A DNA stretch of 64,000 nt. It comes from an uncultured Verrucomicrobiae bacterium. GTDB taxonomy: Bacteria; Verrucomicrobiota; Verrucomicrobiia; Chthoniobacterales; JAATET01. The stretch lies in contig CAVVKW010000004.1 in NCBI GenBank assembly GCA_963749035.1, positions 594,531-658,530 of the forward strand. Direction: 5' to 3'. A program made the position numbers and the translations under genes. This document shows, piece by piece, positions 23,299 to 52,745 of the stretch; positions within the stretch are counted from its first letter, which is position 1; every line of letters starts with the position of its first letter. The notes under the pieces are model-generated. The model searched no databases, was not told the DNA's origin, and worked only from the letters and a program-made list of their open reading frames with translations.

Positions 23299-23663
23299 TG
23301 GATCGGCTGGTGGTCCGGGAAAGGCATCGAGCTACTGGGAGCGTCGTATACTTTGGTTCAAATCGCGAAGCCACTTCAATGATTGGACGAATCCAGAGAG
23401 AAGGGTTCGACTTGGCAGGGATATATTTACGACCGCGGAAGTGATGAGGGCTGGATGTGGCTGGAATGAACAGGGACCAAGCTACGAATTTTTTTTCATC
23501 CGCCGGAGGCTGCTCACGGACATCGGTCGAAATCCGGTGGAGCTGATCTTGTCTTCGGGGTGGCCTCTCAAGTCGTCGCAGTCTGAACCAATGGTAGTTT
23601 GCCGGGTTTGTCGTCAGCTTCAGAATACCGAATTTACTCATCCGCCGGAGGCTGCATCATGAA
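23299..23663 (-). repeat. cassette family B, copy B1 (apparently non-coding)
   Basis: ~365-bp unit shared by 10 cassettes. Contains two CATCCGCCGGAGGCTGC motifs (23497, 23639). Confidence 0.8.
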
Positions 23664-23789
23664 GTCGAACGTCAAGCTCAGCCACCCCGATCGGGTGTTC
23701 GAACTACTGATCGTGATCATCTGCAATCTGGTCGTTCGCCAACCCCGAGAGCGAAGCGGCTAGGGGTTGACTGCAGCGCCTTGTTCGAC
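23664..23789 (-). repeat. attC site 6
   Basis: Boxes gtcgaac/gttcgac, 126 bp. Confidence 0.9.
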
Positions 23790-24463
23790 AAATCTTTGAT
23801 CGGGATCATAGCCGACAAGAAACAAACGTGCTTGGTCATCAAATCTATATATTAAGTCTCCACCGTAGCTTTCCCAAACGAGAATCTTTTGTCTCTCAAT
23901 CCAGTCGCTGAAATGGCGGAATCCGGGCCCGGGCGTATTTGGTGGAGAATGCTTTTTGTCCCATGAAGCCCCCGCCGCTAGCGTTTTCGAGTGTAACTTC
24001 TGGAAATAATCAGATTCTTCAAATGGTGACTTCTCAATGGTGGCGAGCTTCCACTCGCCAGAAGAGGTTCGAAGATAAAGTCGAGTCTCGCTCATTATTC
24101 TTCCCATGTCGAGGCGAAGCCGGAAACCCTTATGTTCTGGATGCCAACTGCAAGTGACCATTGATGTGAGAGGCCCCCAAGAGAAGTCTCCGTTGACTGG
24201 AGTCTCCCAAAGAATTCTCGTGGTGTCTGTCTCGATTAGATATGCGCTGAATGGACTTGGGCCATCTCCCTTGGGAACAGGCAATCCCACGTTCTGATTC
24301 GTGTGACAACAATAGCTAAGTCGCCATCTTGGGAAAGTCCATCACCTTCAATTCGGTTTCCGGTATCGTATCCGACAACGAAATAATCATCGATCTTACG
24401 TGGAGTGTCGTCGGCCAAAAGAATGCTCCCTGTGAAGAGAGATATGATCATTGGAAGTTTCAT
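23760..24463 (-). pseudogene. cassette gene for a secreted protein, apparent frameshift
   Basis: ORF 24236..24463 (MKLPMIISLFTGSILLA signal peptide) and ORF 23760..24290 overlap in different frames around 24270-24290. Tail VEQGAAVNP. Could also be a sequencing error. Confidence 0.45.
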
Positions 24464-24469
24464 ATTTAT

Positions 24470-24598
24470 GTCGAACGTCAAGCTCAGCCACCCCGAACAC
24501 GGGACCGAACTTGCATGGTGGACGTTGGATGGAATGGCGGAAGTCAGAACAACTGCGCCCTGTCGCGGCTAGGGGTTGGCTGCAGCGCCTTGTTCGGC
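24470..24598 (-). repeat. attC site 7
   Basis: Boxes gtcgaac/gttcggc, 129-bp subtype. Confidence 0.9.
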
Positions 24599-24883
24599 AT
24601 CATTTATATCATGCCAAATTTTGAATGCATTTGTGCGGCGCAGATATTCAGCGTGGCGATCAGCAGATTGTTCGCACGAGGATCGATTACTCGGGTAACG
24701 TATTTTGCGGCGAAAGCGATTCTGATGATGATGACCAAGTTCATGTAAAAACACCTCGGCAAACATGAAGAATGCGATGTCGATCCGCTGCTTCCAGTGA
24801 ACTTCTACAATGTCGGGTAGTCGAGTCGTCTCAGCTGAATGGCCGTAATACCAATCTTCGATGTGCGGAAGGAGCGTCTTATA
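24569..24883 (-). pseudogene. cassette ORF with HExxH motif, 5' end truncated by IS630
   Basis: The frame is open from the IS junction (KWYKTLLPHIEDWYYGH...FLHELGHHH...) to the tail AEQGAAANP. No start codon remains upstream. Confidence 0.55.
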
Positions 24884-26017
24884 CCATTTCTATCTAAGAA
24901 TAGGACGTAAAAGTTTGTAGGAACTGTTTGTTTGAGAGAGCAGCCAGCCTTGACCAATCAAGGTGTTTACATTGGCGGGAGATTCCCAAAATTGTTTCAG
25001 CAGGCGGACGATGGCGGCTTCGATGTCGTCCAGAGTATCAAACAAGGCGTTGCCGATCTCGTCTTTGAGCTGGTCGAAGAGCTTTTCAACGGGATTGAGT
25101 TCTGGGCCATAGGCCGGAAATTGGAGGACGTGGATGCGCTCGGGAAGCGGATGAGAGCCCGCCTTTTGATGGAAGCCGGCACCATCCCAAATGATGACGT
25201 GATGGGCGCTCTCGTCGCTCTCGGCCAATTGACGCAGGAAGAAGTCGCTGACTTCCAGACTGAGCGTTGGGCTGAAAAAGAACTCGCTGGCGTTGTCTCC
25301 GTCAATCTCAAGCGCCGCGTAGAGGTGGCCCCACTGATATTTAGTTTGGTAGGGCGCGGTGGGTTTGACACCCCGCAACGTCCAAACCTTGCGGATCTCG
25401 CTGATCAGCCCATAGCGATGCTCATCAACCATCCAAACACGAACCTTTGCCTCACTCGGCAAGTCGAGGGCTTGAAGACGCTGGGCCAGTTCTTCTTTGA
25501 ATGCCAAGGCCGCGACCTCGTCTTTGCGAGCGTGAGTCTTGCGCGGCACTTTCAAGACTCCGCCGACTTTTCCCAACCAGTAATAAACCCCTTTGAGGCT
25601 GAGTTGCACGCCGTGATCTTCGCTCAGCCATGCCCGAACCTCCTTGGCCCGCTTCCAGCGACCTTGGCGCAGACCTTCCTTAAAGACTTCAATAAGCTCT
25701 GGACTCAGCGACGGCTCGTTGCCGGGCGGCTTCTTGCGTTCCAGCAAACCAGCTATTCCAGCCTCTCGATACCAACTCGCCCAGCGACCGACCGCTGAAC
25801 GGGCTCGAACGACCGCTTCAGCGACCTCTTCCATCGTGTAGTTGCCACTCATTCCCATTCGAACCGCTTGTAGCTTCTCAATATCTCGACGTTCGGTTGC
25901 CGCCTTTTCCGCTGCCTTGACCTCAACGAGATCTCCATCAATTCGAAACTTTTTTCCCATCGCCTAAACTACCAGATTCTTGGAATCTTGAATAGTCCTC
26001 AAGTTACATAGAAATGG
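24884..26017 (-). mobile_element. IS630-family insertion sequence
   Basis: IRs CCATTTCTAT(C/G)TAA at both ends. TA dinucleotide on each flank (24882-83, 26018-19). Confidence 0.85.
24890..25960 (-). CDS. IS630-family transposase
   Basis: 356 aa. HTH N-terminus, then WMVDEHRYGL, IIWDGAGFH, PAYGPELNPVEKLF (DDE). Confidence 0.88.
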   Translation of the reverse strand: MGKKFRIDGDLVEVKAAEKAATERRDIEKLQAVRMGMSGNYTMEEVAEAVVRARSAVGRWASWYREAGIAGLLERKKPPGNEPSLSPELIEVFKEGLRQGRWKRAKEVRAWLSEDHGVQLSLKGVYYWLGKVGGVLKVPRKTHARKDEVAALAFKEELAQRLQALDLPSEAKVRVWMVDEHRYGLISEIRKVWTLRGVKPTAPYQTKYQWGHLYAALEIDGDNASEFFFSPTLSLEVSDFFLRQLAESDESAHHVIIWDGAGFHQKAGSHPLPERIHVLQFPAYGPELNPVEKLFDQLKDEIGNALFDTLDDIEAAIVRLLKQFWESPANVNTLIGQGWLLSQTNSSYKLLRPILR

Positions 26018-26019
26018 TA

Positions 26020-26265
26020 TGACACGACAACACACGCGAACGGATTGATGGTCTTTTGCAGGTTTGCCCGTGGCATACAGGTTGCCGTCGTGGCGGTCGA
26101 TGAGCTCTCCAGCAACGGAAGTGTGAATATCTCGGTGGAGGTGAAGGTGAAGGGACGCTGATCTAAAGGAGGTGAATATCAATATGACTGCTGAACGCCT
26201 TGCAGACGATTAGGCACCCATTTTGCTTTCTGGCGTTCGCATACGAAGACTCCGCATTTCATTCT
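26020..26265 (-). repeat. cassette family A, copy A1 (truncated by IS630)
   Basis: Begins mid-element at TGACACGACAACACACGCG, directly after the IS630 TA. Confidence 0.8.
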
Positions 26266-26391
26266 GTCCATCGTCAAGCTCTGCCACCCTGATCGGGCGT
26301 GCGAGCTACTGATTCTGATCTACTGGAAGAAGTGGTTCCGAGCTTCTGAGACGGAACGCGGCTAGGGGTTGGCTACAGCGTCTTGTTCGGC
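26266..26391 (-). repeat. attC site 8 (ATC-type box on family A side)
   Basis: Boxes gtccatc/gttcggc, 126 bp. Confidence 0.85.
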
Positions 26392-26637
26392 ATCTTTTCC
26401 TTGCCTTGTGCGGCTATTATCTGCGCTTCGCAAATGTTTGTTTGGGTGAGCGAATCGGTAAAGATCTATGCTAGATGTCAATGTAACAAACAATAAAAGG
26501 GCTGGGGCAAACGAGCGTGTAAAGGCTAAGATATTTCCCTGCGAGAATATGATAAACAAGCACGTTGCACCAATTACTAGGATAGAGCGGACAACTATTC
26601 CCAATTCATGGTCGGTGAAGGTCTTCATGGAGTCCAT
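26362..26637 (-). CDS. cassette ORF, small membrane protein
   Basis: 91 aa with 2 TM segments. Tail AEQDAVANP. Confidence 0.6.
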   Translation of the reverse strand: MDSMKTFTDHELGIVVRSILVIGATCLFIIFSQGNILAFTRSFAPALLLFVTLTSSIDLYRFAHPNKHLRSADNSRTRQGKDAEQDAVANP

Positions 26638-26710
26638 TTCGTCTAGGGTTTGTTTAGCTGGTCAATAATATAAAGTGTGTTATCGAAATCATTTCTACGG
26701 TTGCCCAGAT

Positions 26711-26836
26711 GCCGAACGTCAAGCTCAGTCACCCCGATCGGGCGTCCGAGCTACTGGTTGTGATCAACTGCAATCTGGTCGTCCGCCAACCCCGAGAGCG
26801 AAGCGGCTAGGGGTTGACTGCAGCGCCTTGTTCGGC
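26711..26836 (-). repeat. attC site 9
   Basis: Boxes gccgaac/gttcggc, 126 bp. Confidence 0.9.
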
Positions 26837-26998
26837 CCGCATTTCAGTATCTTGAAGTTCGAAGTTCAGACCCCCGAAGAATCTCGCCCACAGATTGTAT
26901 GTCCAAGCAAGAACGAAGCCGGAGACGAGCCCGAAGATCGTATTAATGACCGGATGCAAAAATACTAACTTATAATCTATTGTATTTGAAAATGTCAT
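26807..26998 (-). CDS. cassette ORF, small membrane protein
   Basis: 63 aa. Tail AEQGAAVNP. Overlaps the end of the upstream 59-aa ORF. Confidence 0.5.
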   Translation of the reverse strand: MTFSNTIDYKLVFLHPVINTIFGLVSGFVLAWTYNLWARFFGGLNFELQDTEMRAEQGAAVNP

Positions 26999-27748: not shown

Positions 27749-27874
27749 GCCCAACGTCAAGCTCAGCCACCCCGAACGGGCGTGCGAGCTACTGATTGTG
27801 ATCTGCTGAAGGTGACGCTTTCGAACGTCTGAAACGGAACGCGGCTAGGGGTTGGCTGCAGCGTCTTGATGGAC
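27749..27874 (-). repeat. attC site 11 (GAT-type box)
   Basis: Boxes gcccaac/gatggac, 126 bp. Confidence 0.85.
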
Positions 27875-28185
27875 AGAATTTTATGGAACCGCCGCCTGGC
27901 AATTGAGTTATCAAACCTTCGAAGGATGCGCTCATCGAGTGACACGACAACACACGCGAACGGATTGATGGTTTTTTGCAGGTTTGCCCGTGGCATACAG
28001 GTTGCCGTCGTGGCGGTCGATGAGCTCTCCAGCAACGGAAGTGTGAATATCTCGGTGTAGGTGGCGGTGAAGGGAAGCTGATCCAAAGGAGGTGAATATC
28101 AATATGACTGCTGAACGCCGTGCAGACGATTACGCACCCATTTTGCTTTCTGGCGTTCGCATACGAAGACTCCGCATTTCATTCT
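27875..28185 (-). repeat. cassette family A, copy A2
   Basis: Shared ~310-370-bp unit. Hairpin arms at 27930-27951 and 28001-28025. Confidence 0.85.
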
Positions 28186-28310
28186 GTCCATCGTCAAGCT
28201 CAGCCACCCTGAACGGGCGACCGAGAATCTGGAAAAGGTGAACTGCCGGAAAGAGTCACCTCAACCCGGGCGCGAAGCGGCTAAGGGTTGGCTGCAGCGC
28301 CTTGTTCGGC
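28186..28310 (-). repeat. attC site 12
   Basis: Boxes gtccatc/gttcggc, 125 bp. Same attC body as sites 30 and 45. Confidence 0.85.
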
Positions 28311-28595
28311 TGCATTCTTAGTATTTTTCAAGGTCCGTTCAATCCGTGGATTGATTACAAATCCCCAATAAAGAAATACTGACATAATTATTAACGGAAG
28401 CTCCAAAAGCCAAAAATAGTTCAAAGACAGCAGATCAAGAATCGATGGTATTCCAAATGCAAAAATTAAAAGTGGCAATCGAAGCCACATAATGAATGGC
28501 TCTCTTATCTCAAGATTTCTCATAATGGAGCGGATCTCTGACGGCGATTTGTCAGATAATTCTTTTATCTGGCTATGACGCAAAATGAATTTCAT
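28281..28595 (-). CDS. cassette ORF, 104-aa membrane protein (copy 1 of 3)
   Basis: MKFILRHSQIKEL... with 2 TM segments. Tail AEQGAAANP. Near-identical copies at 38099 and 46820. Confidence 0.7.
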   Translation of the reverse strand: MKFILRHSQIKELSDKSPSEIRSIMRNLEIREPFIMWLRLPLLIFAFGIPSILDLLSLNYFWLLELPLIIMSVFLYWGFVINPRIERTLKNTKNAAEQGAAANP

Positions 28596-28602
28596 TGTAA
28601 TA

Positions 28603-28728
28603 GCCGAACGTCAAGCTCAGCCACCCCGAACGGGCTTCCGAGCTACGGGTTGTGATCTACTGGAAGAAGTGCTTCCGAGCATCTGAGACGGAACGCGGCT
28701 AGGGGTTGGCTGCAGCGTCTTGATGGAC
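28603..28728 (-). repeat. attC site 13
   Basis: Boxes gccgaac/gatggac, 126 bp. Confidence 0.85.
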
Positions 28729-29045
28729 AGAATTTGATTGAACCGCCGCCTGGCAATCGAGCTATCAAACCTTCGAACGATGCGCTCATCGAGTGACACG
28801 ACAACACACGCGAACGGATTGATGGTCTTTTGCAGGTTTGCCCGTGGCATACAGGTTGCCGTCGTGGCGGTCGATGAGCTCTCCAACAACGGAAGTGTGA
28901 ATGTCTCGGTGGAGGTAAAGATGAAAATGAAGGTAAGCTGATCCAAAAGAGGTAAATATCAATATGACTGCTGAACGCTTTGCAGACGATTACGCACCCA
29001 TTTTGCTTTCTGGCGTTTGCATACGAAGACTCCGCACTTCCTTCT
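28729..29045 (-). repeat. cassette family A, copy A3
   Basis: Appears identical to copy A6 (45918-46234), including the preceding attC. Confidence 0.85.
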
Positions 29046-29171
29046 GTCCATCGTCAAGCTCAGCCACCCTGAACGGGCGTGCGAAATGCGGAACGCAGTT
29101 CCGCCAGGAAGCGGCTACGAGTTGGGTGTGTCAGCACGCGGCTAGGGGTTGGCTGCAGCGCCTTGTTAGGG
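29046..29171 (-). repeat. attC site 14
   Basis: Boxes gtccatc/gttaggg, 126 bp. Confidence 0.85.
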
Positions 29172-30731: not shown

Positions 30732-30857
30732 GTCGAACGTCAAGCTCAGCCACCCCGTACGGGCGTTCGAGCTACGGGTTGTGAACTGCTGGAAGAATCG
30801 CTTTCGAGCATCTGAGACGGAACGCGGCTAGGGGTTGGCTGCAGCGTCTTAATGGAC
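30732..30857 (-). repeat. attC site 17
   Basis: Boxes gtcgaac/aatggac, 126 bp. Confidence 0.85.
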
Positions 30858-31228
30858 AGAATTTCATCGAGTCGCCGCCTGGCAATCGAGCTATCAAACC
30901 TTCGAATGATGCGCTTATCGAGTGACACGACAACAAACGCAAACGGATTGATGGTCTTTCGGAGGTTTGCCCGTGGCATACAGGTTGCCGTCGTGGCGGT
31001 CGATGAGCTCTCCAGCAACGGAAGTGTGAATGTCTCGGTGGAGGTGAATGTGAAGGTGAAGGTGAAGGTGAAGGTGAAGGTGAAGGTGAAGGTGAAGGTG
31101 AAGGTGAAGGTGAAGAAACGCTGATCCAAAGGAAGTGAATATCAATATGACTGCTGAACGCCTTGCAGACGGTTACGCACCCATTTTCCTTTCTGGCGTT
31201 CGCATACGAAGAATCCGCATTTCATTCT
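30858..31228 (-). repeat. cassette family A, copy A4 (expanded hexamer tract)
   Basis: Same unit as A2, with 12 GGTGAA-type units. Confidence 0.85.
31043..31114. repeat. (GGTGAA)n microsatellite, 12 units (10 perfect)
   Basis: Counted directly: perfect units from 31055 to 31114. Confidence 0.95.
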
Positions 31229-31354
31229 GTCCATCGTCAAGCTCAGCCACCCCGATCGGGTGTGCGAGCTACTGTTTGTGATCTACTGAAAGAATCGCTT
31301 TCGAGCATCTGAGACGGAACGCGGCTAGGGGTTGGCTGCAGCGCCTTGTTCGAC
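31229..31354 (-). repeat. attC site 18
   Basis: Boxes gtccatc/gttcgac, 126 bp. Confidence 0.85.
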
Positions 31355-31721
31355 TGGATTGGGTTGTCGTCCGGGAAAGTCATCGAGCTACTGGGGGCGT
31401 CGTATACTTTAGTTCAAATCGCGAAGCCACTTCAATGAATGGACGAATCCGGAGAGAAGGGTTCGACTCGGAAGGCATATATTTCACGAGCGTGGAACGG
31501 ATGAGGGCTGGATGTGACCGGAACGAGTAGGGATCAAGCTACAAATCTTTTTTTCATCCGCCGGAGGCTGCTCACGGACATCGGTCGAAATCCGGTAGAG
31601 CCGACCTTGCCTCCGGCGTGGCCTCTCAAGTCGTCGCAGTCTGAACCAATGGTAGTTTGCCGGGTTTGCCGTCAGCTACAGAAGCCCGGATTTAATCATT
31701 CGCCGGAGGCTGCATCATGAA
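31355..31721 (-). repeat. cassette family B, copy B2
   Basis: Family B unit. Confidence 0.8.
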
Positions 31722-31847
31722 GTCGAACATCAAGCTCAGCCACCCCGAACGGGCGTGCGAGCTACGGGTTGTGATCTACTGGAGGAAAACTGAGGAAGAA
31801 AGCTGATAGTGGAGCGGCTAGGGGTTGGCTGCAGTGCCTTGTTAGCT
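31722..31847 (-). repeat. attC site 19
   Basis: Boxes gtcgaac/gttagct, 126 bp. Confidence 0.9.
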
Positions 31848-32894: not shown

Positions 32895-32943
32895 TATGAG
32901 CTGGGAAAGGTGTGCGTCATTTATATCATCCGCCGGAGGCTGA

Positions 32944-33069
32944 GCCGAACGTCAAGCTCAGCCACCCCGAACGGGCTTGCGAGCTACTGGTTGTAATCTG
33001 CTGAAAGAATCGCTTTCGAGCATCTGAGACGGAATGCGGCTAGGGGTTGGCTGCAGCGCCTTGTTCGAC
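32944..33069 (-). repeat. attC site 21
   Basis: Boxes gccgaac/gttcgac, 126 bp. Confidence 0.9.
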
Positions 33070-33435
33070 TGTATCGGCTGGTGGTCCGGGAAAGTCATCG
33101 ATCTACTGGGAGCGTCGTATACTTTGGTTCAAATCGCGAAGCCACTTCATTGTTTCGAGGAATCCAAAGAGAAGTGCTTGACTCGGAAGGCATATATTTC
33201 ACGAACGCGGAAGGGATGAGGGCTGGATGTGGCTGGAATGAACAGGGACCAAGCTACGAATTTTTTTTCATCCGCCGGAGGCTGCTCACGGACGTCGGTC
33301 GAAATCCGGTGGAGCCGATCTTGTCTTCGGGGTGGCCTCTCAAGTCGTCGCAGTCTGAACCAATGGTAGTTTGCCGGGTTTGCCGTCAGCTAGAGAACAC
33401 CGAATTTACTCATCCGCCGGAGGCTGCATCATGAA
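33070..33435 (-). repeat. cassette family B, copy B3
   Basis: Family B unit. Confidence 0.8.
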
Positions 33436-33564
33436 GTCGAACGTCAAGCTCAGTCACCCCGAACACGGGACCGAACTTGCATGGTGGACGTTGGATGGAA
33501 TGGCGGAAGTCAGAACAACTGCGCCGTGTCGCGGCTAGGGGTTGGCTGCAGCGCCTTGTTCGGT
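33436..33564 (-). repeat. attC site 22
   Basis: Boxes gtcgaac/gttcggt, 129-bp subtype. Confidence 0.9.
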
Positions 33565-33962: not shown

Positions 33963-34088
33963 ACCGAACGTCAAGCTCAGCCACCCCGAACAGATGGTCG
34001 AAATACTGATTGTGTTCTGATGAAGGTGACGCTTCCGAGCGTCTGAAAAGGAGAGCGGCTAGGGGTTGGCTGCAGCGCCTTGTTGGGC
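33963..34088 (-). repeat. attC site 23
   Basis: Boxes accgaac/gttgggc, 126 bp. Confidence 0.9.
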
Positions 34089-34514
34089 TTTCATCTTCCA
34101 TAGGACAACTGATCCAATGACTGCAATCATCAGAATGCAGGCGGTCATGACGATGCAAATATGTTGAAATGCAGGTGATAGTTCACGAGTGAGAACGGGA
34201 AAGCTCCAAGGTCGAGAGCATAGAATCAGAATTGAATAGGCTGATGTAGCGATCCAAAAATACCTACTGAATGAAACGAAATTCCGCACTAAAATCGAAA
34301 TCGCGCCGAAGATAAACGCGAAGTAACCGTAAATCCATGCCGTTTGGATTGCGGCAATCCAAACTCCATTTGCAGAGCGTAGGCGGGAAACCTCGTTCCA
34401 CAACTCAACAGGCGTCACGAGTGCTGCGAAAATGGTGTAGGGAATGGCAAGGCTAGTCGGGAAAAGTATGGTGAGTCCGACGAAAGCAAAAACGCGGTGT
34501 AGATGCTTTTTCAT
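34059..34514 (-). CDS. cassette ORF, 151-aa integral membrane protein
   Basis: ATG at 34514 (MKKHLHRVF...) with 4-5 TM segments. Tail AQQGAAANP. Confidence 0.7.
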   Translation of the reverse strand: MKKHLHRVFAFVGLTILFPTSLAIPYTIFAALVTPVELWNEVSRLRSANGVWIAAIQTAWIYGYFAFIFGAISILVRNFVSFSRYFWIATSAYSILILCSRPWSFPVLTRELSPAFQHICIVMTACILMIAVIGSVVLWKMKAQQGAAANP

Positions 34515-34517
34515 ATA

Positions 34518-34643
34518 GCCCAACGTCAAGCTCAGCCACCCCGAACGGGCATGCGAGCTACGGGTTGTGAACTGCTGAAGGTAACGCTTCCGAGAGTCTG
34601 AAACGGAGCGCGGCTAGGGGTTGGCTGCAGCGCCTTGTTAGCC
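34518..34643 (-). repeat. attC site 24
   Basis: Boxes gcccaac/gttagcc, 126 bp. Confidence 0.9.
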
Positions 34644-35166: not shown

Positions 35167-35292
35167 GGCTAACGTCAAGCTCAGCCACCCTGAACGGGTA
35201 ACCGAATTTGTCTGGTGATCTTCTGGAAGTTGAGGGTCCGCGCAACCCCAAGAGCGAAGCGGCTAGGGGTTGGCTGCAGCGCCTTGTTGGGC
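35167..35292 (-). repeat. attC site 25
   Basis: Boxes ggctaac/gttgggc, 126 bp. Confidence 0.9.
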
Positions 35293-35802
35293 TGTATTGT
35301 TCACCCAGGTAGGAATATTCTTGAGGGGTTGCTTTATGACTGACTTTGATGAAGTGGCGCTTGGAAAGTCGATTTCTTTCGGGCGCTTCATCGAAATGGA
35401 TAGCAGCTTCTTTCGGCTATCGAATGGAACTTCAAATCGTTCATGACCATCGGAACTATCAAATACAAATCGATCCGAGGATATGGAGATCACATTCGTA
35501 GCTTTCCATTGCCCTGAGAATCTATTTAAGAAGTCGGAATTACTTCCTTCAGTGATATGCCAGTATTTATTGTCTTTCAGATTCCAGCGTCCCCAAGAAA
35601 CAACGATTTCTGATGCCTTGTTCAAGTCGTAGCTCAAATACCATTTCTGAGCGAATCGGCCATCGCCATATCTATCAATAATCCAGTAACCGGTTGGAAC
35701 CGTTTCTGCCATCCAGCGGCCAATCAAAAGTTTGCTTTGATCGGCGGCGAATGAAAATTGAAGGCTTGCGATGGAGAAAAGTGCGAAAATTAGAGTGCGC
35801 AT
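35263..35802 (-). CDS. cassette ORF, secreted protein (lipocalin-like?)
   Basis: Signal peptide MRTLIFALFSIASLQFSFA. LLIGRWMAE motif, also seen in the 55068 cassette. Tail AQQGAAANP. Confidence 0.7.
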   Translation of the reverse strand: MRTLIFALFSIASLQFSFAADQSKLLIGRWMAETVPTGYWIIDRYGDGRFAQKWYLSYDLNKASEIVVSWGRWNLKDNKYWHITEGSNSDFLNRFSGQWKATNVISISSDRFVFDSSDGHERFEVPFDSRKKLLSISMKRPKEIDFPSATSSKSVIKQPLKNIPTWVNNTAQQGAAANP

Positions 35803-35812: not shown

Positions 35813-35938
35813 CCCTAACGTCAAGCTCAGCCACCCCGAACGGGCGTGCGAGCTACTGGTTGTGATCTGCTGAACGTGACGCTTTCGAACATCTGAAACA
35901 GAACGCGGCTAGGGGTTGGCTGCAGCGCCTTGTTCGAC
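35813..35938 (-). repeat. attC site 26
   Basis: Boxes ccctaac/gttcgac, 126 bp. Confidence 0.9.
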
Positions 35939-36304
35939 TGTATCGGATGGCGGTCCGGAAAGGTGTTCGAGCTACACTGGGAATTGTATTCGTCTTACCA
36001 AATCGCGAAGACACTTTCATGTTTCAGCGAACCCTAAGAAAAGGGTTCGACTCGGAAGGCATATATCTCGCGAACGCGGAAGGGATGAGGGCTGGATGTG
36101 GCCGGAACGACCGGGGATCAAGCTACAATTCTTTTTTCATCCGCCGGAGGCTGCTCACGGACATCGGTCGAAATCCGGTTGAGCCGATCTTGTCTTCGGG
36201 GTGGCCTCTCAAGTCGTCGTAGTCTGAACCAATGGTAGCTTGCCGGGTTTGCCGTCAGCTACAGAATACCGAATTCCCTGATCCGCCGGAGGCTGCATCA
36301 TGAA
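35939..36304 (-). repeat. cassette family B, copy B4
   Basis: Family B unit, close to B9. Confidence 0.8.
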
Positions 36305-36430
36305 GTCGAACGTCAAGCTCAGCCACCCCGAACAAGCTTCCGAGGTATGGATTGATGTTTGTTGGAGGAAGAGCTTTCGAACGTCGAAAACGGAGTGCGG
36401 CTAGGGGTTGGCTGCAGCGCCTTGTTCGGT
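36305..36430 (-). repeat. attC site 27
   Basis: Boxes gtcgaac/gttcggt, 126 bp. Confidence 0.9.
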
Positions 36431-38003: not shown

Positions 38004-38128
38004 ACCTAACGTCAAGCTCAGCCACCCTGAACGGGCGACCGAGAATCTGAAAAAGGTGAACTGCCGGAAAGAGTCACCTCAACCCGGGCGCGAAGCGGCT
38101 AAGGGTTGGCTGCAACGCCTTGTTCGGC
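38004..38128 (-). repeat. attC site 30
   Basis: Boxes acctaac/gttcggc, 125 bp. Confidence 0.9.
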
Positions 38129-38413
38129 TGCATTCTTAGTATTTTTCAAGGTCCGTTCAATCCGTGGATTGATTACAAATCCCCAATAAAGAAATACTGA
38201 CATAATTATTAACGGAAGCTCCAAAAGCCAAAAATAGTTCAAAGACAGCAGATCAAGAATCGATGGTATTCCAAATGCAAAAATTAAAAGTGGCAATCGA
38301 AGCCACATAATGAGCGGCTCTCTTATCTCAAGATTTCTCATAATGGAGCGGATCTCTGACGGCGATTTGTCAGATAATTCTTTTATCTGGCTATGACGCA
38401 AAATGAATTTCAT
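38099..38413 (-). CDS. cassette ORF, 104-aa membrane protein (copy 2 of 3)
   Basis: MKFILRHSQ... paralog. Tail AEQGVAANP. Confidence 0.7.
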   Translation of the reverse strand: MKFILRHSQIKELSDKSPSEIRSIMRNLEIREPLIMWLRLPLLIFAFGIPSILDLLSLNYFWLLELPLIIMSVFLYWGFVINPRIERTLKNTKNAAEQGVAANP

Positions 38414-38420
38414 TGTAATA

Positions 38421-38546
38421 GCCGAACGTCAAGCTCAGCCACCCCGAACGGGCGAACGAGCTAATGATTGTGATCTACGGGAGGAAAACTGTGGAAGTAA
38501 CCTGGTGGTGGAGCGGCTAGGGGTTGGCTGCAGCACCTTGTTCGAC
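38421..38546 (-). repeat. attC site 31
   Basis: Boxes gccgaac/gttcgac, 126 bp. Confidence 0.9.
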
Positions 38547-38913
38547 TGTACGGGATAGTGGTCCGAAAATGTCATCGAACTAAAGTAGGCGATATTTACT
38601 TTGGTCCAAATTGCGAAGCCACTTTTCAAGAGTTAGCAAATCTAACGAGGAGGGTTCGACTCGGGAGGCATATATTTCACGAACGCGGAAGGGATGAGGG
38701 CTGGATGTGGCCGGAACGACCGGGGATCAAGCTACAAATCATTTTTCATCCGCCGGAGGCTGCTGACGAACATCAGTCGAAATCCGGTGGAGCCGATCTT
38801 GTCTTCGGCGTGGCCTCTCAAGTCGTCGCAGTTTGAACCAATGGTAGTTTGTCGGGTCTACCGTCACCTACAGAATCCCGGATTTACTCATCCGCCGGAG
38901 GCTGCATCATGAA
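38547..38913 (-). repeat. cassette family B, copy B5
   Basis: Family B unit with a divergent 5' half. Confidence 0.8.
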
Positions 38914-39039
38914 GTCGAACGTCAAGCTCAGCCACCCTGAACGGGCGGGCGAACTGAGGGTTGTGATCTGCTGGAGGCGGATCGTGGAGTAAAGCTGGGC
39001 ATGGAGCGGCTAAGGGTTGGCTGCAGCGCCTTGTTAGGC
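38914..39039 (-). repeat. attC site 32
   Basis: Boxes gtcgaac/gttaggc, 126 bp. Confidence 0.9.
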
Positions 39040-40293: not shown

Positions 40294-40419
40294 AGCGAAC
40301 GTCAAGCTCAGCCACCCCGAACGGGCGTGCGAGCATCTGTTTGTGATCTACTGAAAGAATCGCTTTCGAGCATCTAAGACGGAACGCGGCTAGGGGTTGG
40401 CTGCAGCGTCTTGATGGAC
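40294..40419 (-). repeat. attC site 34
   Basis: Boxes agcgaac/gatggac, 126 bp. Confidence 0.85.
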
Positions 40420-40736
40420 AGAATTTTATTGAACCGCAGCCTGGCAATTGAGCTATCAAACCTTCGAACGATGCGCTCATCGAGTGACACGACAACACAC
40501 GCGAACGGATTGATGGTCTTTTGCAGGTTTGCCCGTGGCATACAGGTTGCCGTCGTGGCGGTCGATGAGCTCTCTAGCAACGGAAGTGTGAATATCTCGG
40601 TGTAGGTAAAGGTGAAGGTGGAGGGACGTTGATCCAAAGGAAGTGAATATCAATATGGCTGCTGAACGCCTTGCAGACAATTACGCACCCATTTTGCTTT
40701 CTGGCGTTCGCATACGAAGAATCCGCATTTCATTCT
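40420..40736 (-). repeat. cassette family A, copy A5
   Basis: Family A unit. Confidence 0.85.
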
Positions 40737-40862
40737 GTCCATCGTCAAGCTCAGCCACCCCGAACGGGCGATCGAGCTACTGGTCGTGATTTACTGGAGG
40801 TAAGGCGTGGATAAAAGCAATCTGTGGAGCGGCTAGGGGCTGGCTGCAGCGCCTTGTTCGGT
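40737..40862 (-). repeat. attC site 35
   Basis: Boxes gtccatc/gttcggt, 126 bp. Confidence 0.85.
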
Positions 40863-41511: not shown

Positions 41512-41637
41512 ACCGAACGTCAAGCTCAGCCACCCCGAACAGGCATGCGAGTTATGGGCTGTGATCTACTGTAGGGAAATCGTGGATGAAAGTTGGTAGT
41601 GTCGCGGCTAGGGGTTGGCTGCAGCGCCTTGTTAGAC
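41512..41637 (-). repeat. attC site 36
   Basis: Boxes accgaac/gttagac, 126 bp. Confidence 0.9.
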
Positions 41638-41957
41638 TGGTCAGGATAAAATGGTGAGCTGCGGAGAAGATGATCGAATAACTGCGGACTAGCTCATCGT
41701 GTGCCACAACAATGTACGCAGTCAAGAAACTGATCTCTTTCAGGATAACCCGGTCGTATACAAGTGACAGTTGTGGCACTCGATGAGCCTCCTATAGCAG
41801 GCGGAACGTTGAATGCGTGATAGGCTCCCGTGCCGAAGGCTTCCACGGGTGCTACATGATGGAAAGTTATTCTCTTATGCTCGTTCTTTGATCGCCCGAT
41901 CAATTCTTCGCAATCGAATGTCTGTTGGAAACGGAAGTTGCAACGCAGTATCAGGAA
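41638..41957 (-). repeat. cassette family C, copy C3
   Basis: Family C unit. Confidence 0.8.
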
Positions 41958-42083
41958 GTCTAACGTCAAGCTCAGTCACCCCAATCGGGTGTCCGAACGG
42001 CTAGTAGTGATCATCTGCAATCTGGTCGTGCGCCAACCCCGAGAGCGAAGCGGCTAGGGGTTGACTGCAGCGCCTTGTTCGGT
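41958..42083 (-). repeat. attC site 37
   Basis: Boxes gtctaac/gttcggt, 126 bp. Confidence 0.9.
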
Positions 42084-43029: not shown

Positions 43030-43078
43030 AAACTCAATGTTGGGTGTGGGCAATCTGGATTCATCCGCCGGAGGCTGG

Positions 43079-43204
43079 GCCGAACGTCAAGCTCAGTCAC
43101 CCCGAACGGATGTTCGAACTACTGGTTGTGATCACCTGCAATCTGGTAGTCCGCCAACCCCGAGAGCGAAGCGGCTAGGGGTTGACTGCAGTGCCTTGTT
43201 AGCT
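43079..43204 (-). repeat. attC site 39
   Basis: Boxes gccgaac/gttagct, 126 bp. Confidence 0.9.
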
Positions 43205-45791: not shown

Positions 45792-45917
45792 ACCGAACGT
45801 CAAGCTCAGCCACCCCGAACGGGCTTCCGAGCTACGGGTTGTGATCTACTGGAAGAAGTGCTTCCGAGCATCTGAGACGGAACGCGGCTAGGGGTTGGCT
45901 GCAGCGTCTTGATGGAC
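45792..45917 (-). repeat. attC site 43
   Basis: Boxes accgaac/gatggac, 126 bp. Confidence 0.85.
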
Positions 45918-46234
45918 AGAATTTGATTGAACCGCCGCCTGGCAATCGAGCTATCAAACCTTCGAACGATGCGCTCATCGAGTGACACGACAACACACGC
46001 GAACGGATTGATGGTCTTTTGCAGGTTTGCCCGTGGCATACAGGTTGCCGTCGTGGCGGTCGATGAGCTCTCCAACAACGGAAGTGTGAATGTCTCGGTG
46101 GAGGTAAAGATGAAAATGAAGGTAAGCTGATCCAAAAGAGGTAAATATCAATATGACTGCTGAACGCTTTGCAGACGATTACGCACCCATTTTGCTTTCT
46201 GGCGTTTGCATACGAAGACTCCGCACTTCCTTCT
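45918..46234 (-). repeat. cassette family A, copy A6
   Basis: Duplicate of A3. Confidence 0.85.
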
Positions 46235-46360
46235 GTCCATCGTCAAGCTCAGCCACCCCGAACGGGCGTGCGAGCTATGGATTGTGATCTGATGAAGGTG
46301 ACGCTTCCGGACGTCTGAGACGGAGCGCGGCTAGGGGTTGGCTGCAGCGCCTTGTTCGAC
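46235..46360 (-). repeat. attC site 44
   Basis: Boxes gtccatc/gttcgac, 126 bp. Confidence 0.85.
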
Positions 46361-46724
46361 TGTATGGGATGGTCGCCCGGGAAAGTCATCGAGCTATTGG
46401 GGGCGTCGTATACCTTGGTTCTAATCGCGAAGGCACTTTAATGATTGGACGAATTCAAAGAGAAGGGTTCGACTTGGCAGGCATATATTTACGACCGCGG
46501 AAGTGATGAAGGCTGCATGTGGCCGGAACGAGCGGGGATCAAGCTACGAATTTTTTTCATCCGCCGGAGGCTGCTGACGGACATCGGTCGAAATCCGGTG
46601 GAGCCGATCTTGTCTTCGGCGCGGCCTCTCAAGTCGTCGCAGTCTGAACCAATGGTGGTTTGCCGGGTTTGCCGTCACCTACAGGAGCCCGGATTTAATC
46701 ATCCGCCGGAGGCTGCATCATGAA
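46361..46724 (-). repeat. cassette family B, copy B6
   Basis: Family B unit, close to B8. Confidence 0.8.
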
Positions 46725-46849
46725 GTCGAACGTCAAGCTCAGCCACCCTGCACGGGCGACCGAGAATCTGGAAAAGGTGAACTGCCGGAAAGAGTCACCT
46801 CAACCCGGGCGCGAAGCGGCTAAGGGTTGGCTGCAGCGCCTTGTTCGGC
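46725..46849 (-). repeat. attC site 45
   Basis: Boxes gtcgaac/gttcggc, 125 bp. Confidence 0.9.
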
Positions 46850-47134
46850 TGCATTCTTAGTATTTTTCAAGGTCCGTTCAATCCGTGGATTGATTACAAA
46901 TCCCCAATAAAGAAATACTGACATAATTATTAACGGAAGCTCCAAAAGCCAAAAATAGTTCAAAGACAGCAGATCAAGAATCGATGGTATTCCAAATGCA
47001 AAGATTAAAAGTGGCAATCGAAGCCACATAATGAATGGCTCTCTTATCTCAAGATTTCTCATAATGGAGCGGATCTCTGACGGCGATTTGTCAGATAATT
47101 CTTTTATCTGGCTATGACGCAAAATGAATTTCAT
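46820..47134 (-). CDS. cassette ORF, 104-aa membrane protein (copy 3 of 3)
   Basis: Protein identical to the 28281..28595 copy. Confidence 0.7.
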   Translation of the reverse strand: MKFILRHSQIKELSDKSPSEIRSIMRNLEIREPFIMWLRLPLLIFAFGIPSILDLLSLNYFWLLELPLIIMSVFLYWGFVINPRIERTLKNTKNAAEQGAAANP

Positions 47135-47141
47135 TGTAATA

Positions 47142-47267
47142 GCCGAACGTCAAGCTCAGCCACCCTGAACGGGCGTGCGAAATGCGGAACGCAGTTCCGC
47201 CAGGTAGCGGCTACGAGTTGGGTGTGTCAGCACGCGGCTAAGGGTTGGCTGCAGCGCCTTGTTCGGT
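47142..47267 (-). repeat. attC site 46
   Basis: Boxes gccgaac/gttcggt, 126 bp. Confidence 0.9.
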
Positions 47268-48936: not shown

Positions 48937-49062
48937 GTCGAACGTCAAGCTCAGCCACCCCGAACGAGAGTTCAAACGACTGACTGTGATCTGCTGAAGG
49001 TGACGCTTTCGAACGTCTGAAACGGAACGCGGCTAGGGGTTGGCTGCAGCGTCTTGATGGAC
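48937..49062 (-). repeat. attC site 49
   Basis: Boxes gtcgaac/gatggac, 126 bp. Confidence 0.85.
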
Positions 49063-49378
49063 AGAATTTGATTGAACCGCCGCCTGGCAATTGAGCTATC
49101 AGACCTTCGAACGATGCGCTCATCGAGTGACACGACAACACACGCGAACGGATTGATGGTCTTTTGCAGGTTTGCCCATGGCATACAGGTTGCCGTCGTG
49201 GCGGTCGATGAGTTCTCCAGCAACGGAAGTGTGAATATCTCGGTGTAGGTAAAGGTGAAGGTGAAGGGACGCTGATCTAAAGGAAGGGAATATCAATATG
49301 ACTGCTGAACGCCTTGCAGACGATTGGGCACCCATTTTGCTTTCTGCGTTCGCATACGAAGAATCCGCATTTCATTCT
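49063..49378 (-). repeat. cassette family A, copy A8
   Basis: Family A unit, with a 1-nt deletion in the 3' part relative to the other copies. Confidence 0.85.
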
Positions 49379-49504
49379 GTCCATCGTCAAGCTCAGCCAC
49401 CCCGAACGGGCGTGCGAGCTATGGATTGTGATCTACTGGAGGTGGTGCTTTCGAACATCTGAAACAGAAAGCGGCTAGGGGTTGGCTGCAGCGCCTTGTT
49501 CGAC
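49379..49504 (-). repeat. attC site 50
   Basis: Boxes gtccatc/gttcgac, 126 bp. Confidence 0.85.
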
Positions 49505-49868
49505 TGTATGGGATGGTCGCCCGTGAAAGTCATCGAGCTACTGGGGGCGTCGTATACTTTGGTTCAAATTGCGAAGCCACTTCAATGATTGGACGAATCC
49601 AGAGAGAAGGGTTCGACTCGGAAGGCATATATTTCACGAGCGTGGAAGGGATGAGGGCTGGATGTGGCCGGAACGAGTAGGGATCAAGTTACGAATTTTT
49701 TCATCCGCCGGAGGCTGCTCACGGACATCGGTCGAAATCCGGCGGAGCCGATCTTGTCTTCGGCGCGGCCTCTCAAGTCGTCGCAGTCTGAACCAATGGT
49801 AGTTTGCCGGGTTTGCCGTCAGCTACAGAATACAGAATTTACTCATCCGCCGGAGGCTGCATCATGAA
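49505..49868 (-). repeat. cassette family B, copy B7
   Basis: Family B unit. Confidence 0.8.
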
Positions 49869-49994
49869 GTCGAACGTCAAGCTCAGCCACCCCGAACGGG
49901 CTTCCGAGCTATGGATTGATGTTTGCTGGAGGAACAGCTTTCGAACGTCGAAAACGGAACGCGGCTAGGGGTTGGCTGCAGCACCTTGTTAGAC
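49869..49994 (-). repeat. attC site 51
   Basis: Boxes gtcgaac/gttagac, 126 bp. Confidence 0.9.
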
Positions 49995-50314
49995 TGGTCA
50001 GGATAAAATGGTGAGCTGCGGAGAAGATGATCGAAAAACTGCGGAGTAGCTCATCGTGTGCCACAACAATGTACGCAGTCGAGAAACTGATCTCTTTCAG
50101 GATATCCCGGTCGTATACAATTGACAGTTGTGGCACTCGATGAGCCTCCCATAGCAGACGGAACGTTGATTGCGTGATAGGCACCCGCGCCGAAGGCTTC
50201 TACGGGTGCTACATTATGGAAAGTTATTCTCTTATGCTCGTTCTTTGATCGCCTGATTAATTCTTCGCAATCGAATGCCTGTTGGAAACGGAAGTTGCAA
50301 CGCTGCATCATGAA
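49995..50314 (-). repeat. cassette family C, copy C4
   Basis: Family C unit. Confidence 0.8.
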
Positions 50315-50443
50315 GTCGAACGTCAAGCTCAGCCACCCCGAACATGGGACCGAACTTGCATGGTGGACGTTGAATGGAATGGCGGAAGTCAGAACAACTG
50401 CGCCGTGCGGCGGCTAGGGGTTGGCTGCAGCGCCTTGTTCGAC
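50315..50443 (-). repeat. attC site 52
   Basis: Boxes gtcgaac/gttcgac, 129-bp subtype. Confidence 0.9.
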
Positions 50444-50807
50444 TGTATGGGATGGTCGCCCGGGAAAGTCATCGAGCTATTGGGGGCGTCATCTACTTTG
50501 GTTCAAATCGCGAAGGCACTTTAATGATTGGACGAATTCAAAGAGAAGGGTTCGACTTGGCAGGCATATATTTACGACCGCGGAAGTGATGAAGGCTGCA
50601 TGTGGCCGGAACGAGCGGGGATCAAGCTACGAATTTTTTTCATCCGCCGGAGGCTGCTGACGGACATCGGTCGAAATCCGGTGGAGCCGATCTTGTCTTC
50701 GGCGCGGCCTCTCAAGTCGTCGCAGTCTGAACCAATGGTAGTTTGCCGGGTTTGCCGTCACCTACAGGAGCCCGGATTTAATCATCCGCCGGAGGCTGCA
50801 TCATGAA
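50444..50807 (-). repeat. cassette family B, copy B8
   Basis: Family B unit. Confidence 0.8.
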
Positions 50808-50933
50808 GTCGAACGTCAAGCTCAGCCACCCCGAACGGGCTTGCGAGCTACTGGTTGTGAACTGCTGAACGTGACGCTTTCGAACATCTGAAACAGAACG
50901 CGGCTAGGGGTTGGCTGCAGCGCCTTGTTCGAC
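50808..50933 (-). repeat. attC site 53
   Basis: Boxes gtcgaac/gttcgac, 126 bp. Confidence 0.9.
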
Positions 50934-51299
50934 TGTATCGGATGGCGGTCCGGAAAGGTGTTCGAGCTACACTGGGAATTGTATTCGTCTTACCAAATCG
51001 CGAAGACACTTTCATGTTTCAGCGAACCCTAAGAAAAGGGTTCGACTCGGAAGGCATATATCTCGCGAACGCGGAAGGGATGAGGGCTGGATGTGGCCGG
51101 AACGACCGGGGATCAAGCTACAATTCTTTTTTCATCCGCCGGAGGCTGCTGACGAACATCGGTCGGAATCCGGTGGAGCCGATCTTGTCTTCGGGGTGGC
51201 CTCTCAAGTCGTCGCAGTCTGAACCAATGGTAGTTTGCCGGGTTTGCCGTCAGCTACAGAATACCGAATTCCCTGATCCGCCGGAGGCTGCATCATGAA
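50934..51299 (-). repeat. cassette family B, copy B9
   Basis: Family B unit, directly adjacent to B8. Confidence 0.8.
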
Positions 51300-51424
51300 G
51301 TCGAACGTCAAGCTCAGCCACCCCGAACGGGCTTGCGAGCACTGTTTGTGATCTACCTGAAAAATCGCTTTCGAGCGTCTGAGACGGAACGCGGCTAGGG
51401 GTTGGCTGCAGCGCCTTGTTCGGT
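51300..51424 (-). repeat. attC site 54
   Basis: Boxes gtcgaac/gttcggt, 125 bp. Confidence 0.9.
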
Positions 51425-51440
51425 CTGTATTGGTTTCGTG

Positions 51441-51809
51441 CTATTGCATTGATCTTGGATAATATGATTGCAATTGATTTGTGCGATACCGTTCGACGCG
51501 TTCTGATTGGCGTCTAACGGTATCAGTATTATCGTCGATTAGTTCCAGATAAGTTGGAGCTTGAAGTTGCTTCTCCGAAGTCCTTTTGATTTGTATTTTG
51601 TTCTTCTGTGCGAACAAAATTGGATTTGTTGAATCCAAAATGAGTGCTTCCTCTATCACTTTTTCAGATCGATCGTATTCACCTTTCTCGAAAAGCGTCA
51701 TGGAGGTTCGCAAGAGATCAAACGTCTTGGCTTGCGTTGCCTTATCATCGGCAGCTGCTGTAGTCATTCCGATGACCAAGGATGAGACTATAAGTGCGAG
51801 CGTCTTCAT
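51441..51809 (-). CDS. cassette ORF, secreted 122-aa protein
   Basis: Signal peptide MKTLALIVSSLVIGMTTAAA. Own stop. Confidence 0.68.
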   Translation of the reverse strand: MKTLALIVSSLVIGMTTAAADDKATQAKTFDLLRTSMTLFEKGEYDRSEKVIEEALILDSTNPILFAQKNKIQIKRTSEKQLQAPTYLELIDDNTDTVRRQSERVERYRTNQLQSYYPRSMQ

Positions 51810-51819
51810 GATTATTATG

Positions 51820-51945
51820 ACCGAACGTCAAGCTCAGCCACCCCGAACGGGTGTCCGAACTACTGGTTGAAATCTGCTGGAGGTGACGCTTTCGAACATC
51901 TGAAACAGAAAGCGGCTAGGGGTTGGCTGCAGCGTCTTGATGGAC
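51820..51945 (-). repeat. attC site 55
   Basis: Boxes accgaac/gatggac, 126 bp. Confidence 0.85.
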
Positions 51946-52256
51946 AGAATTTTATGGAACCGCCGCCTGGCAATTGAGCTATCAAACCTTCGAACGATGC
52001 GCTCATCGAGTGACACGACAACACACGCGAACGGATTGATGGTCTTTTGCAGGTTTGCCCGTGGTATACAGGTTGCCGTCGTGGCGGTCGATGAGCTCTC
52101 CAGCAACGGAAGTATGTATGTCTCGGTGTAGGTAAAGGTGAAGAGACACTGATCCAAAGGAGGTGAATATCAATATGACTGCTGAACGCCTTGTAGACTA
52201 TTACGGCCGGATTTCATTCCTTCGCCCTCGCATATGGAGAATCCGCATTTCATTCT
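51946..52256 (-). repeat. cassette family A, copy A9 (one end diverged)
   Basis: Family A unit. Region 52190-52240 differs from the other copies. Confidence 0.8.
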
Positions 52257-52382
52257 GTCCATCGTCAAGCTCAGCCACCCCGAACGGGTGTCCAAACTAC
52301 TGGTTTAAATCTGCTGGAGGTGACTCTTTCGAACATCTGAGACGGAACGCGGCTAGGGGTTGGCTGCAGCGCCTTGTTCGAC
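52257..52382 (-). repeat. attC site 56
   Basis: Boxes gtccatc/gttcgac, 126 bp. Confidence 0.85.
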
Positions 52383-52745
52383 TGTATCGGCTGCTGGTCC
52401 GGGAAAGTCATCGAGCTACTGGGAGCGTCGTATACTTTGGTTCAAATCGCGAAGCCACTTCTATGATTGGACCAATCCAGAGAGAAGGGTTCGACTTGTA
52501 AGGCATATATGTTACGAACGCGGAAGAGATGAGGGCTGGATGTGGCCGTAACGAGTGGGGATCAAGCTACGATTTTTTCATCCGCCGGAGGCTGCTGACG
52601 GACATCGGTCGAAATCCGGTGGAGCCGATCTTGTCTTCGGGGTGGCCTCTCAAGTCGTCGCAGTCTGAACCAATGGTAGTTTGCCGGGTTTGCCGTCAGC
52701 TACAGAATACCGAATTCACTCATCCGCCGGAGGCTGCATCATGAA
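52383..52745 (-). repeat. cassette family B, copy B10
   Basis: Family B unit. Confidence 0.8.

Follow-up and report, generated by a model that had tools for sequence, protein, structure and literature searches.

A hyper-amplified gene-less cassette as a candidate regulatory element in a chromosomal integron array of a Verrucomicrobiae bacterium

The usual picture of a large chromosomal integron is that of a gene store, silent for the most part and read from one promoter, Pc, and the expression of cassettes distal to it is an open question. Cassettes that carry no gene and have promoter activity are an experimentally established class (Blanco et al., 2024, Nucleic Acids Research [NAR], PMC11014356). 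Their demonstration is recent and covers only Vibrio and Treponema, the gene-less cassettes of Treponema being earlier work cited in PMC11014356. Those of Vibrio are 491 to 666 bp long and fall under a working definition that demands no annotated gene and no open reading frame (ORF) of more than 210 bp. Here, we analyzed a 64,000-nucleotide (nt) stretch of DNA, referred to as the window, from an uncultured Verrucomicrobiae bacterium (contig CAVVKW010000004.1 of assembly GCA_963749035.1, positions 594,531 to 658,530). It contains ten copies of a small integron cassette, designated B, which we tentatively read as a gene-less regulatory cassette with two promoter/operator-like leader modules. B resembles the promoter cassettes of PMC11014356 in its similar size, its normal attC site, the lack of a gene under selection, and its residence in very large chromosomal arrays. 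For both, a regulatory role for neighboring cassettes is the favored reading, and some of the described cassettes have relic open frames, as does B.

Several features set B apart. Its promoter activity is a sequence-based prediction, and its host is a Verrucomicrobiae bacterium. The cassettes of PMC11014356 are single, whereas B recombines and is hyper-amplified, accounting for 59 of 303 cassettes. It has two copies of a defined dyad motif, and this motif also heads 22 further cassette families. For Vibrio, in which the promoters were unrecognizable in silico, a shared module of this kind was not reported (PMC11014356). The gene-less integron cassette as a kind of element is already known. What is new is the extreme amplification, the Verrucomicrobiae host, and a junction-anchored, orientation-fixed motif common to B and the leaders of one in six families. 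Repeated cassettes have also been described in Vibrio superintegrons, where they are mostly toxin-antitoxin cassettes that stabilize the array (see also PMC11014356). B is likewise present in multiple copies dispersed along a large array but encodes neither toxin nor antitoxin; the related loci described below have these separately.

The array is chromosomal and extends from approximately 18.77 kb (position 18775) to the end of the window at 64000, with 72 attC-type sites delimiting 71 cassettes. It adjoins ordinary chromosomal genes with a GC content of 60%, including accA, cobA/hemD, mgtE, and a response-regulator kinase. None of intI, attI, or Pc was found within the 64-kb window; therefore, the integron platform must sit beyond 64 kb, and 18.77 kb must be the distal end of the array. 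GC skew was positive on the plus strand over the whole array, and the cassette genes may thus be on the lagging strand.

The polarity of the array was deduced from ORF orientation, the asymmetry of the attC arms, and an alignment of the ten B copies. With B and two other repeated families, A and C, set aside, 157 cassettes had their longest frame on the minus strand and 16 had it on the plus strand. Cassette ORFs start just within the high-coordinate junction and stop within the low-coordinate attC. Many of them (e.g., 35263-35802, 34059-34529, and 28281-28595) enter their own attC and end at its conserved TAG; therefore, unrelated proteins have a common C-terminal tail, ...(A)EQGAAANP. By sequence inspection, the attC arm with two extra (extrahelical) bases, which marks the R''-L'' side, was the 5' arm on the minus strand. 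Once cassette boundaries were redrawn, the low-coordinate attC sites aligned across the B copies and the high-coordinate ones did not. The top strand of the array by convention is therefore the minus strand of the window, so that the attC belonging to B is the low-coordinate one and the conserved half of B is the 5' end of the cassette. An earlier note on this DNA had inverted both the attC assignment and the polarity. A comparison of attC centers, own versus neighbor, in all loci revealed a weak difference (0.70 versus 0.67), and the polarity is not based on it.

All ten B copies were found where the earlier note had placed them, with their sense on the minus strand. They comprise B1 (23179..23669, 491 nt, with its own attC at the low-coordinate end as judged by attC core sites and alignment), B2 (31235..31727, 493 nt), B3 (32950..33441, 492 nt), B4 (35819..36310, 492 nt), B5 (38427..38919, 493 nt), B6 (46241..46730, 490 nt), B7 (49385..49874, 490 nt), B8 (50321..50813, 493 nt), B9 (50814..51305, 492 nt), and B10 (52263..52751, 489 nt). 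The attC centers of B5 and B8 are unlike those of most copies. The unit had been described as approximately 365 bp long; this agrees with a body of about 370 nt, but the whole cassette, including its own attC, is larger (489 to 493 nt). We defined a cassette as bounded by attC sites, with its first 6 nt complementing the inverse core of its own attC. The flanking R'/R'' boxes match across each cassette body of the array, and in every B copy they read TTCGAC/GTCGAAC.

Read in the cassette sense, B consists of a conserved 5' part of 175 nt, a poly-A tract, a variable part of 190 nt, and its own attC of approximately 120 nt. In the reference copy, B9, the attC occupies 50814-50933 and the body occupies 50934-51305 (minus strand). 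As had been noted before, the half beside the high-coordinate junction is the more conserved one, with a nucleotide diversity of approximately 0.05 to 0.06 versus approximately 0.13 in the other half. Also borne out were the two direct motif copies per unit: a 17-mer, CATCCGCCGGAGGCTGC, was present twice in all ten copies with a spacing of 142 nt. At two or fewer mismatches, it occurred 23 times versus 0.02 expected, and 20 of these occurrences were in B, as pairs 142 nt apart. In B9, module 1 is the 17-mer at 51275..51291 (minus strand), which includes the core CCTCCGGCGGA. It sits 18 nt inside the 5' junction; TGA or TCA and an A/T-rich hexamer come next in the sense direction. Module 2, the other 17-mer (51133..51149, minus strand), comes 142 nt further downstream in that direction, at 160 nt from the junction, with poly-A after it. 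Each module is composed of a core-site-like TTCGAC, 8 to 12 nt, the imperfect dyad (G)CAGCCTCCGGCGGATGA, and an A/T-rich stretch. The poly-A tract after module 2 (51120..51132 in B9, minus strand; a T-run on the plus strand) varies in length from copy to copy. The lengths listed in the earlier note hold, except for B5, which has 5 T after 'ca'. Among 61 copies, runs of 5 (13 copies), 6 (13), 7 (14), and 8 (2) were counted, and the tract was often interrupted. Indels of 1 nt separate the B copies, in agreement with the frame-breaking indels reported earlier.

B does not have the ends of an insertion sequence (IS) or a miniature inverted-repeat transposable element: no terminal inverted repeats were found, and its ends are attC junctions. 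Its only inverted repeat is internal, 11 nt long, and formed with an attC arm; it is not kept in a diverged relative, designated L005. Two further ideas about the conserved half, namely, that it derives from an inverted attC by degeneration and that it can pair with the attC arm, were rejected. The matches do not go beyond 11-mers, the comparison scored 22 versus 17 ± 2.5 for the null, and the 11-nt complement is lost in L005. ARAGORN predicted no tRNA or tmRNA genes in the window.

To place B among its relatives, several sequence collections were searched. A genome-collection scan with a double 11-mer returned at least 116 matches, most of them chance matches in GC-rich genomes. The only real ones were L046 (91% identity) and L005 (approximately 70% identity), which are Verrucomicrobiae metagenome-assembled genomes from one sample series with one B copy each. 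A scan of JGI metagenomes gave one match, by chance, and no match was found in a viral collection or in a plasmid collection of 72,556 plasmids. When an ORF on the antisense strand of B was used in a protein search, 20 products were retrieved; a single ENA metagenome assembly was the source of all of them, and no Pfam domain was found in any. Through these products and one product of an exhaustive search (P0021), seven 20-kb loci were fetched (L117-L122 and L124, contigs of ENA ERZ25039505). The six screened ones contained 50 further B copies; six loci were fetched through intact ORFs, and the sample is therefore biased toward intact copies. While B makes up 19% of the 303 cassettes, family A has 53 members, family C has 18, and every other family has at most 5, so that A, B, and C together represent 43%. 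Within the window, a recount gave 24 of 71 cassettes for the three families in place of the 26 of 72 given previously. Arrays of the same type exceed 100 kb: contig_10884 of ERZ25039505 has B copies at 16 to 37 kb and at 102 to 122 kb. Adjacency of B and A was enriched approximately 1.8-fold in both directions. A directed B-to-A neighbor pairing was discarded, since the two-way enrichment indicates clustering or duplication instead. Other cassettes of the related loci encode toxin-antitoxin proteins (ParE, PemK/RelB, PIN, PhdYeFM, and DUF433/Unstab_antitox), acetyltransferases, SnoaL, and glyoxalase, and transposases (DDE_Tnp_ISL3, DDE_Tnp_1, and rve) occur within the arrays.

The motif of the B modules is shared with many other cassettes. 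Allowing for one mismatch, the core CCTCCGGCGGA occurred 153 times in the cassette sense and 5 times in antisense in nine loci, almost always either 9 to 24 nt or approximately 160 nt from a 5' junction. It was present in the first 45 nt of 23 of the 143 cassette families, that is, B and 22 others, most of which are ORF-bearing. With one of these, family 80, B has its first 35 nt or so in common. The commonest form of the module is TTCGGC-TCAG-CCTCCGGCGGA-TGA followed by an A/T-rich hexamer, and TGA directly follows the motif in 15 of the 23 families. A -10-like hexamer (A at position 2 and T at position 6) follows the motif in 52% of cases versus 11% at random cassette positions (resampling P < 1e-4). 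By inspection, the dyad TCCGnCGGA sits within a wider imperfect palindrome of 18 bp. Motif-bearing families also have long untranslated leaders. Their ORFs start at a median of 134 nt from the junction, with none within 30 nt. For families that lack the motif, the corresponding figures are a median of 20 nt and 61% of ORFs within 30 nt (Mann-Whitney P = 4e-6).

Cassettes with internal promoters, which include toxin-antitoxin cassettes, cmlA, ere(A), and qnrVC1 (PMC11014356), offer a second comparison. The 22 other motif families are like them in having a long 5' leader and a -10-like element ahead of the ORF. They are unlike them in that one module, abutting the junction, is common to unrelated cassettes; this module is known here from sequence alone. 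In the window, it is exemplified on the minus strand by an unrelated ORF-bearing cassette (32895..32949), which reads TTCGGC TCAG CCTCCGGCGGA TGA TATAAA and whose ORF starts 55 nt from the junction. Further examples at the 5' ends of non-B cassettes, all on the minus strand, are located at 43054..43084, at 57387..57417 (the variant CCTCCGGTGGA TGA TATAGT), at 57906..57943 (17 nt from the junction), at 60612..60642, and at 62465..62498.

Operator dyads in promoter spacers place promoters under repressor or MerR-type control. The module is like these in that a GC-rich 4+1+4 dyad, TCCGnCGGA, would sit directly upstream of a TGn/-10-like element. It is unlike them in that its -35 is weak or absent, and the likeness is one of analogy only. 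To the reading of B as a regulatory cassette that lacks a gene and has two promoter/operator-like leader modules, we assign a probability of roughly 0.37. B would then act through DNA and the control of transcription, and neither as a protein nor as a folded RNA. The leader module would be a cassette-borne promoter/operator, with the GC-rich dyad as the site for a putative dimeric regulator and the TGn plus TAnnnT-like hexamer after it as an extended -10 element. With the motif beginning approximately 10 nt from the junction, as it does in most families, the recombination core TTCGGC would come to the -35 position. The array is probably too long to be served by Pc alone, and B may act on transcription within it: in the sense direction, it would supply, or titrate, regulated initiation for cassettes remote from Pc. 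The poly-A tract, being prone to slippage, could alter the -10 geometry of module 2 copy by copy.

Promoter activity, the existence of a regulator, and effects on neighboring cassettes are what we infer from the sequence features. What the sequence itself shows is the anatomy of B, the orientation and position bias of the motif, its link with long leaders, the -10-like enrichment, the lack of a coding or folding signal, and the amplification and recombination of the family. In favor of the regulatory reading are these motif features, the start that B has in common with family 80, the identity of both motif copies in L005, the lower diversity of the 5' half, and the established class of gene-less cassettes with promoter activity. 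Several observations weigh against it. A simple sigma-70 scan of B cassettes found no -35/-10 pairs versus 2.6 expected, with a consensus that may not be that of Verrucomicrobiae. The hexamer after module 1 of B varies (TAAATT, TAAATC, GGAATT, or TGAATT), and module 2 is followed only by poly-A. The putative -35, TTCGGC, matches the consensus at 2 of 6 positions, and in B the motif is 18 nt from the junction, which puts the core site out of register. The -10-like enrichment could reflect common descent of the module and not function. In addition, 110 well-conserved nt between the two modules fall outside the promoter/operator account, and intI, attI, and Pc lie outside the window.

In a more elaborate version, which we consider doubtful, a single regulator would serve the whole array, with the dyad CCTCCGGCGGA as its operator and an extended -10 promoter assembled at the junction. 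Cassettes would then be either promoter-less or equipped with a regulated promoter of their own, and B would be a mobile, hyper-amplified double promoter/operator that switches on blocks of the >100-kb array or buffers them by titration of the regulator, each copy being tuned by its poly-A. If the motif is a promoter/operator, internal and possibly coregulated transcription would be a built-in mobile feature of arrays outside Proteobacteria. It would also provide a sequence handle to predict self-expressed cassettes.

The leading rival makes B a selfish or neutral passenger, an account that we likewise consider doubtful. B would be functionless, over-copied because its attC recombines well, and homogenized by gene conversion, and the motif would be a shared historical leader fragment. 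This fits the abundance of B beside two other hyper-abundant small families, substitutions that are neutral for every reading frame, and the lack of a match to any known RNA or protein family. It also fits the mosaic nature of the copies. Four-gamete incompatibility is widespread, amounting to 28% between sites closer than 30 nt and approximately 50% beyond (range, 28 to 54%), and the pairwise distances of the two halves are weakly correlated (rho = 0.16). The B copies are a freely recombining population. However, despite this free recombination, diversity in the 5' half is 2.3-fold below that in the 3' half. Both motif copies and their surrounding blocks are identical in L005, in identical blocks of 13 to 18 nt within approximately 70% overall identity, and the sites that vary within the B family are those that differ in L005 (P = 0.0065). 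Together, these three observations argue for constraint at the sequence level, with biased gene conversion as an alternative cause of the low 5' diversity. A passenger also would not be expected to share a strictly oriented, position-fixed motif with unrelated cassettes, 23 families in all, and useless cassettes are, as a general argument, readily excised (PMC11014356). Should B be no more than such a passenger, it would clearly illustrate how a cassette that encodes nothing can spread.

B had been proposed to be a structured noncoding element, and a small or structured RNA gene, transcribed from one strand and acting by its fold or by base-pairing, is an improbable reading. In its favor, conservation in B is noncoding and occurs in blocks, and a possible plus-strand hairpin of 9 bp, UCCGCCGGA/UCCGGUGGA, has one-sided changes that mostly preserve pairing. 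Nevertheless, neither database matches, covariation, nor folding supported a structured RNA. Rfam gave no match at the gathering score for the whole window and none even at E ≤ 1 for four B copies. RNAalifold on 61 copies found compensatory changes in 1 to 2 of approximately 37 to 40 predicted pairs, with pair-breaking changes at least as frequent. The power of this covariation test was limited to one diverged relative and stayed low because the scans yielded no further ones. The plus strand of the conserved half folded no better than shuffled sequences (z = +0.46), and in the cassette sense it folded worse than 198 of 200 shuffles (z = +2.2). By inspection, L005 breaks both the plus-strand hairpin and the ATCGG...CCGAT helix singled out in the earlier note, in each case without compensation. 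No terminator-like sites were found.

The statement in the earlier note that no reading frame is conserved was too strong. One plus-strand frame of approximately 120 codons (M..VRESHRATGG...IRRRLLTDIGRNPVEP...HPPEAAS, then the stop) spans the body, antisense to the cassette, and is open in 32 of 61 copies, with a length of up to 360 nt. Because of this frame, half of the B copies breach the definition used in PMC11014356. In the window, it is fully open in B3 and B9, which have the consensus frame, and in B1 by a frame-shifted yet open path. As previously noted, B4 has an internal stop (36220-36222), and a minus-strand ORF of 142 amino acids exists in B1 only; otherwise, the sense strand of the window copies has no long ORF. 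B could be a decaying protein gene in reverse orientation, whose plus-strand ORF of approximately 119 amino acids was once functional or still is in intact copies. We consider this slightly less likely than an RNA gene. In its favor, the frame extends through the entire body to a stop located 6 nt short of the junction, and 20 of its products have been annotated by gene callers. Some gene-less Vibrio cassettes are degenerated genes (PMC11014356).

The substitution pattern does not bear out a gene. Nucleotide diversity by codon position of the antisense frame was flat (0.108/0.101/0.092), and the third position was the least variable one in the variable half. By contrast, variable sites in multicopy ORF-bearing cassettes of the same arrays, which served as a positive control, were distributed 40/18/45 over the three positions. 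Among 337 unique variants, 99 were synonymous versus 91 expected, and omega was approximately 0.9. Stop-creating variants were slightly fewer than expected (8 versus 13.6; P = 0.065), a point in favor of a gene. Neither a synonymous excess nor codon periodicity was detected in any frame, and no other frame did better; the conserved ORF with synonymous bias that could have argued for a protein was not seen. Copies were 367 to 374 nt long without preference for multiples of three. An open frame of 120 codons arose in 11% of dinucleotide-preserving shuffles of the consensus, and composition alone explains it (P = 0.11). Searches of B translations gave no Pfam match, and an exhaustive HMMER search of 1.84 billion representative proteins returned B translations only. 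The L005 homologue has stops in all six frames and no ORF in any of them. In addition, the two 17-mers lie in different frames, the ORF would begin at the attC and leave no room for a promoter, and the sample is skewed toward intact copies, as described above. A protein product is unlikely, as the earlier note had concluded.

Least likely of all, B could be a transcriptional insulator. Its sense RNA, which would be untranslated, rich in C, and without structure, as rut sites are, would load Rho and so stop read-through along the array. Alternatively, the GGCGG-containing motif would be a pause/antitermination site like the ops element of RfaH, GGCGGTAGnnTG. The sense strand of B is 31% C and 22% G, folds poorly in the conserved half, and has no ORF to shield the transcript, and the motif is sense-specific and found in leaders. 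However, GC skew has one and the same sign throughout the array, so that the C-richness is not specific to B. The likeness to ops extends over no more than 5 nt, and a terminator role leaves the motif ahead of genes in ORF-bearing cassettes unaccounted for.

A mini-ORF, M(M)xPPADE.., of 8 to 52 codons runs across the motif in B, in families 80, 89, 117, and 126, and in L005 (5800-5833). In these cases, the motif starts 12 to 18 nt from the junction, with an ATG just upstream. A leader peptide was rejected as a general explanation of the motif: in the majority class, whose motif starts at a distance of 10 nt from the junction, a start codon is lacking and a TGA lies just upstream in frame. The mini-ORF may be a coincidence or a second layer of control. 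On the plus strand, a GGAGG-N7-ATG was observed at the junction-proximal motif of B (23655-23662 and equivalents), with GGAGG-N4-ATG in L005. The frame that follows has approximately 35 codons and runs through the attC of the neighbor to the attC's TAG; L005 keeps it relative to the attC by a 3-nt difference. This arrangement is present in B and L005 and absent from other motif-bearing cassettes.

Copies of family A, another repeated family of the window, include those at 27755-28191, 28609-29051, 30738-31234, 40300-40742, and 45798-46240. They contain a hexanucleotide microsatellite, (TTCACC)n, and their lengths therefore range from 431 to 497 nt in steps of 6 nt. A stop interrupts the sense frame of the family A consensus, and the family gave no codon-position signature. 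Family C copies are 444 to 448 nt long (including 49875-50320 and 41518-41963). Their central segment is related to that of family A (...PLL.E...VV..DE.VR.. in one frame), also without a coding signature.

Three intervals between attC sites are oversized for cassettes: 20388-23178, 24476-26271, and 52752-54471 (1,720 nt). The first two contain ISs, namely, an IS3-type two-ORF element (21535-22760, plus strand), an ISL3-like fragment (20662-21333, minus strand), and an IS630-like transposase gene (24890-25960, minus strand). Finally, three cassettes of 417 nt (28192-28608, 38010-38426, and 46731-47147) are 99% identical to each other and encode a membrane-protein-like product of 104 amino acids (MKFILRHSQIKELSDK...). 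They look like a recent triplication.

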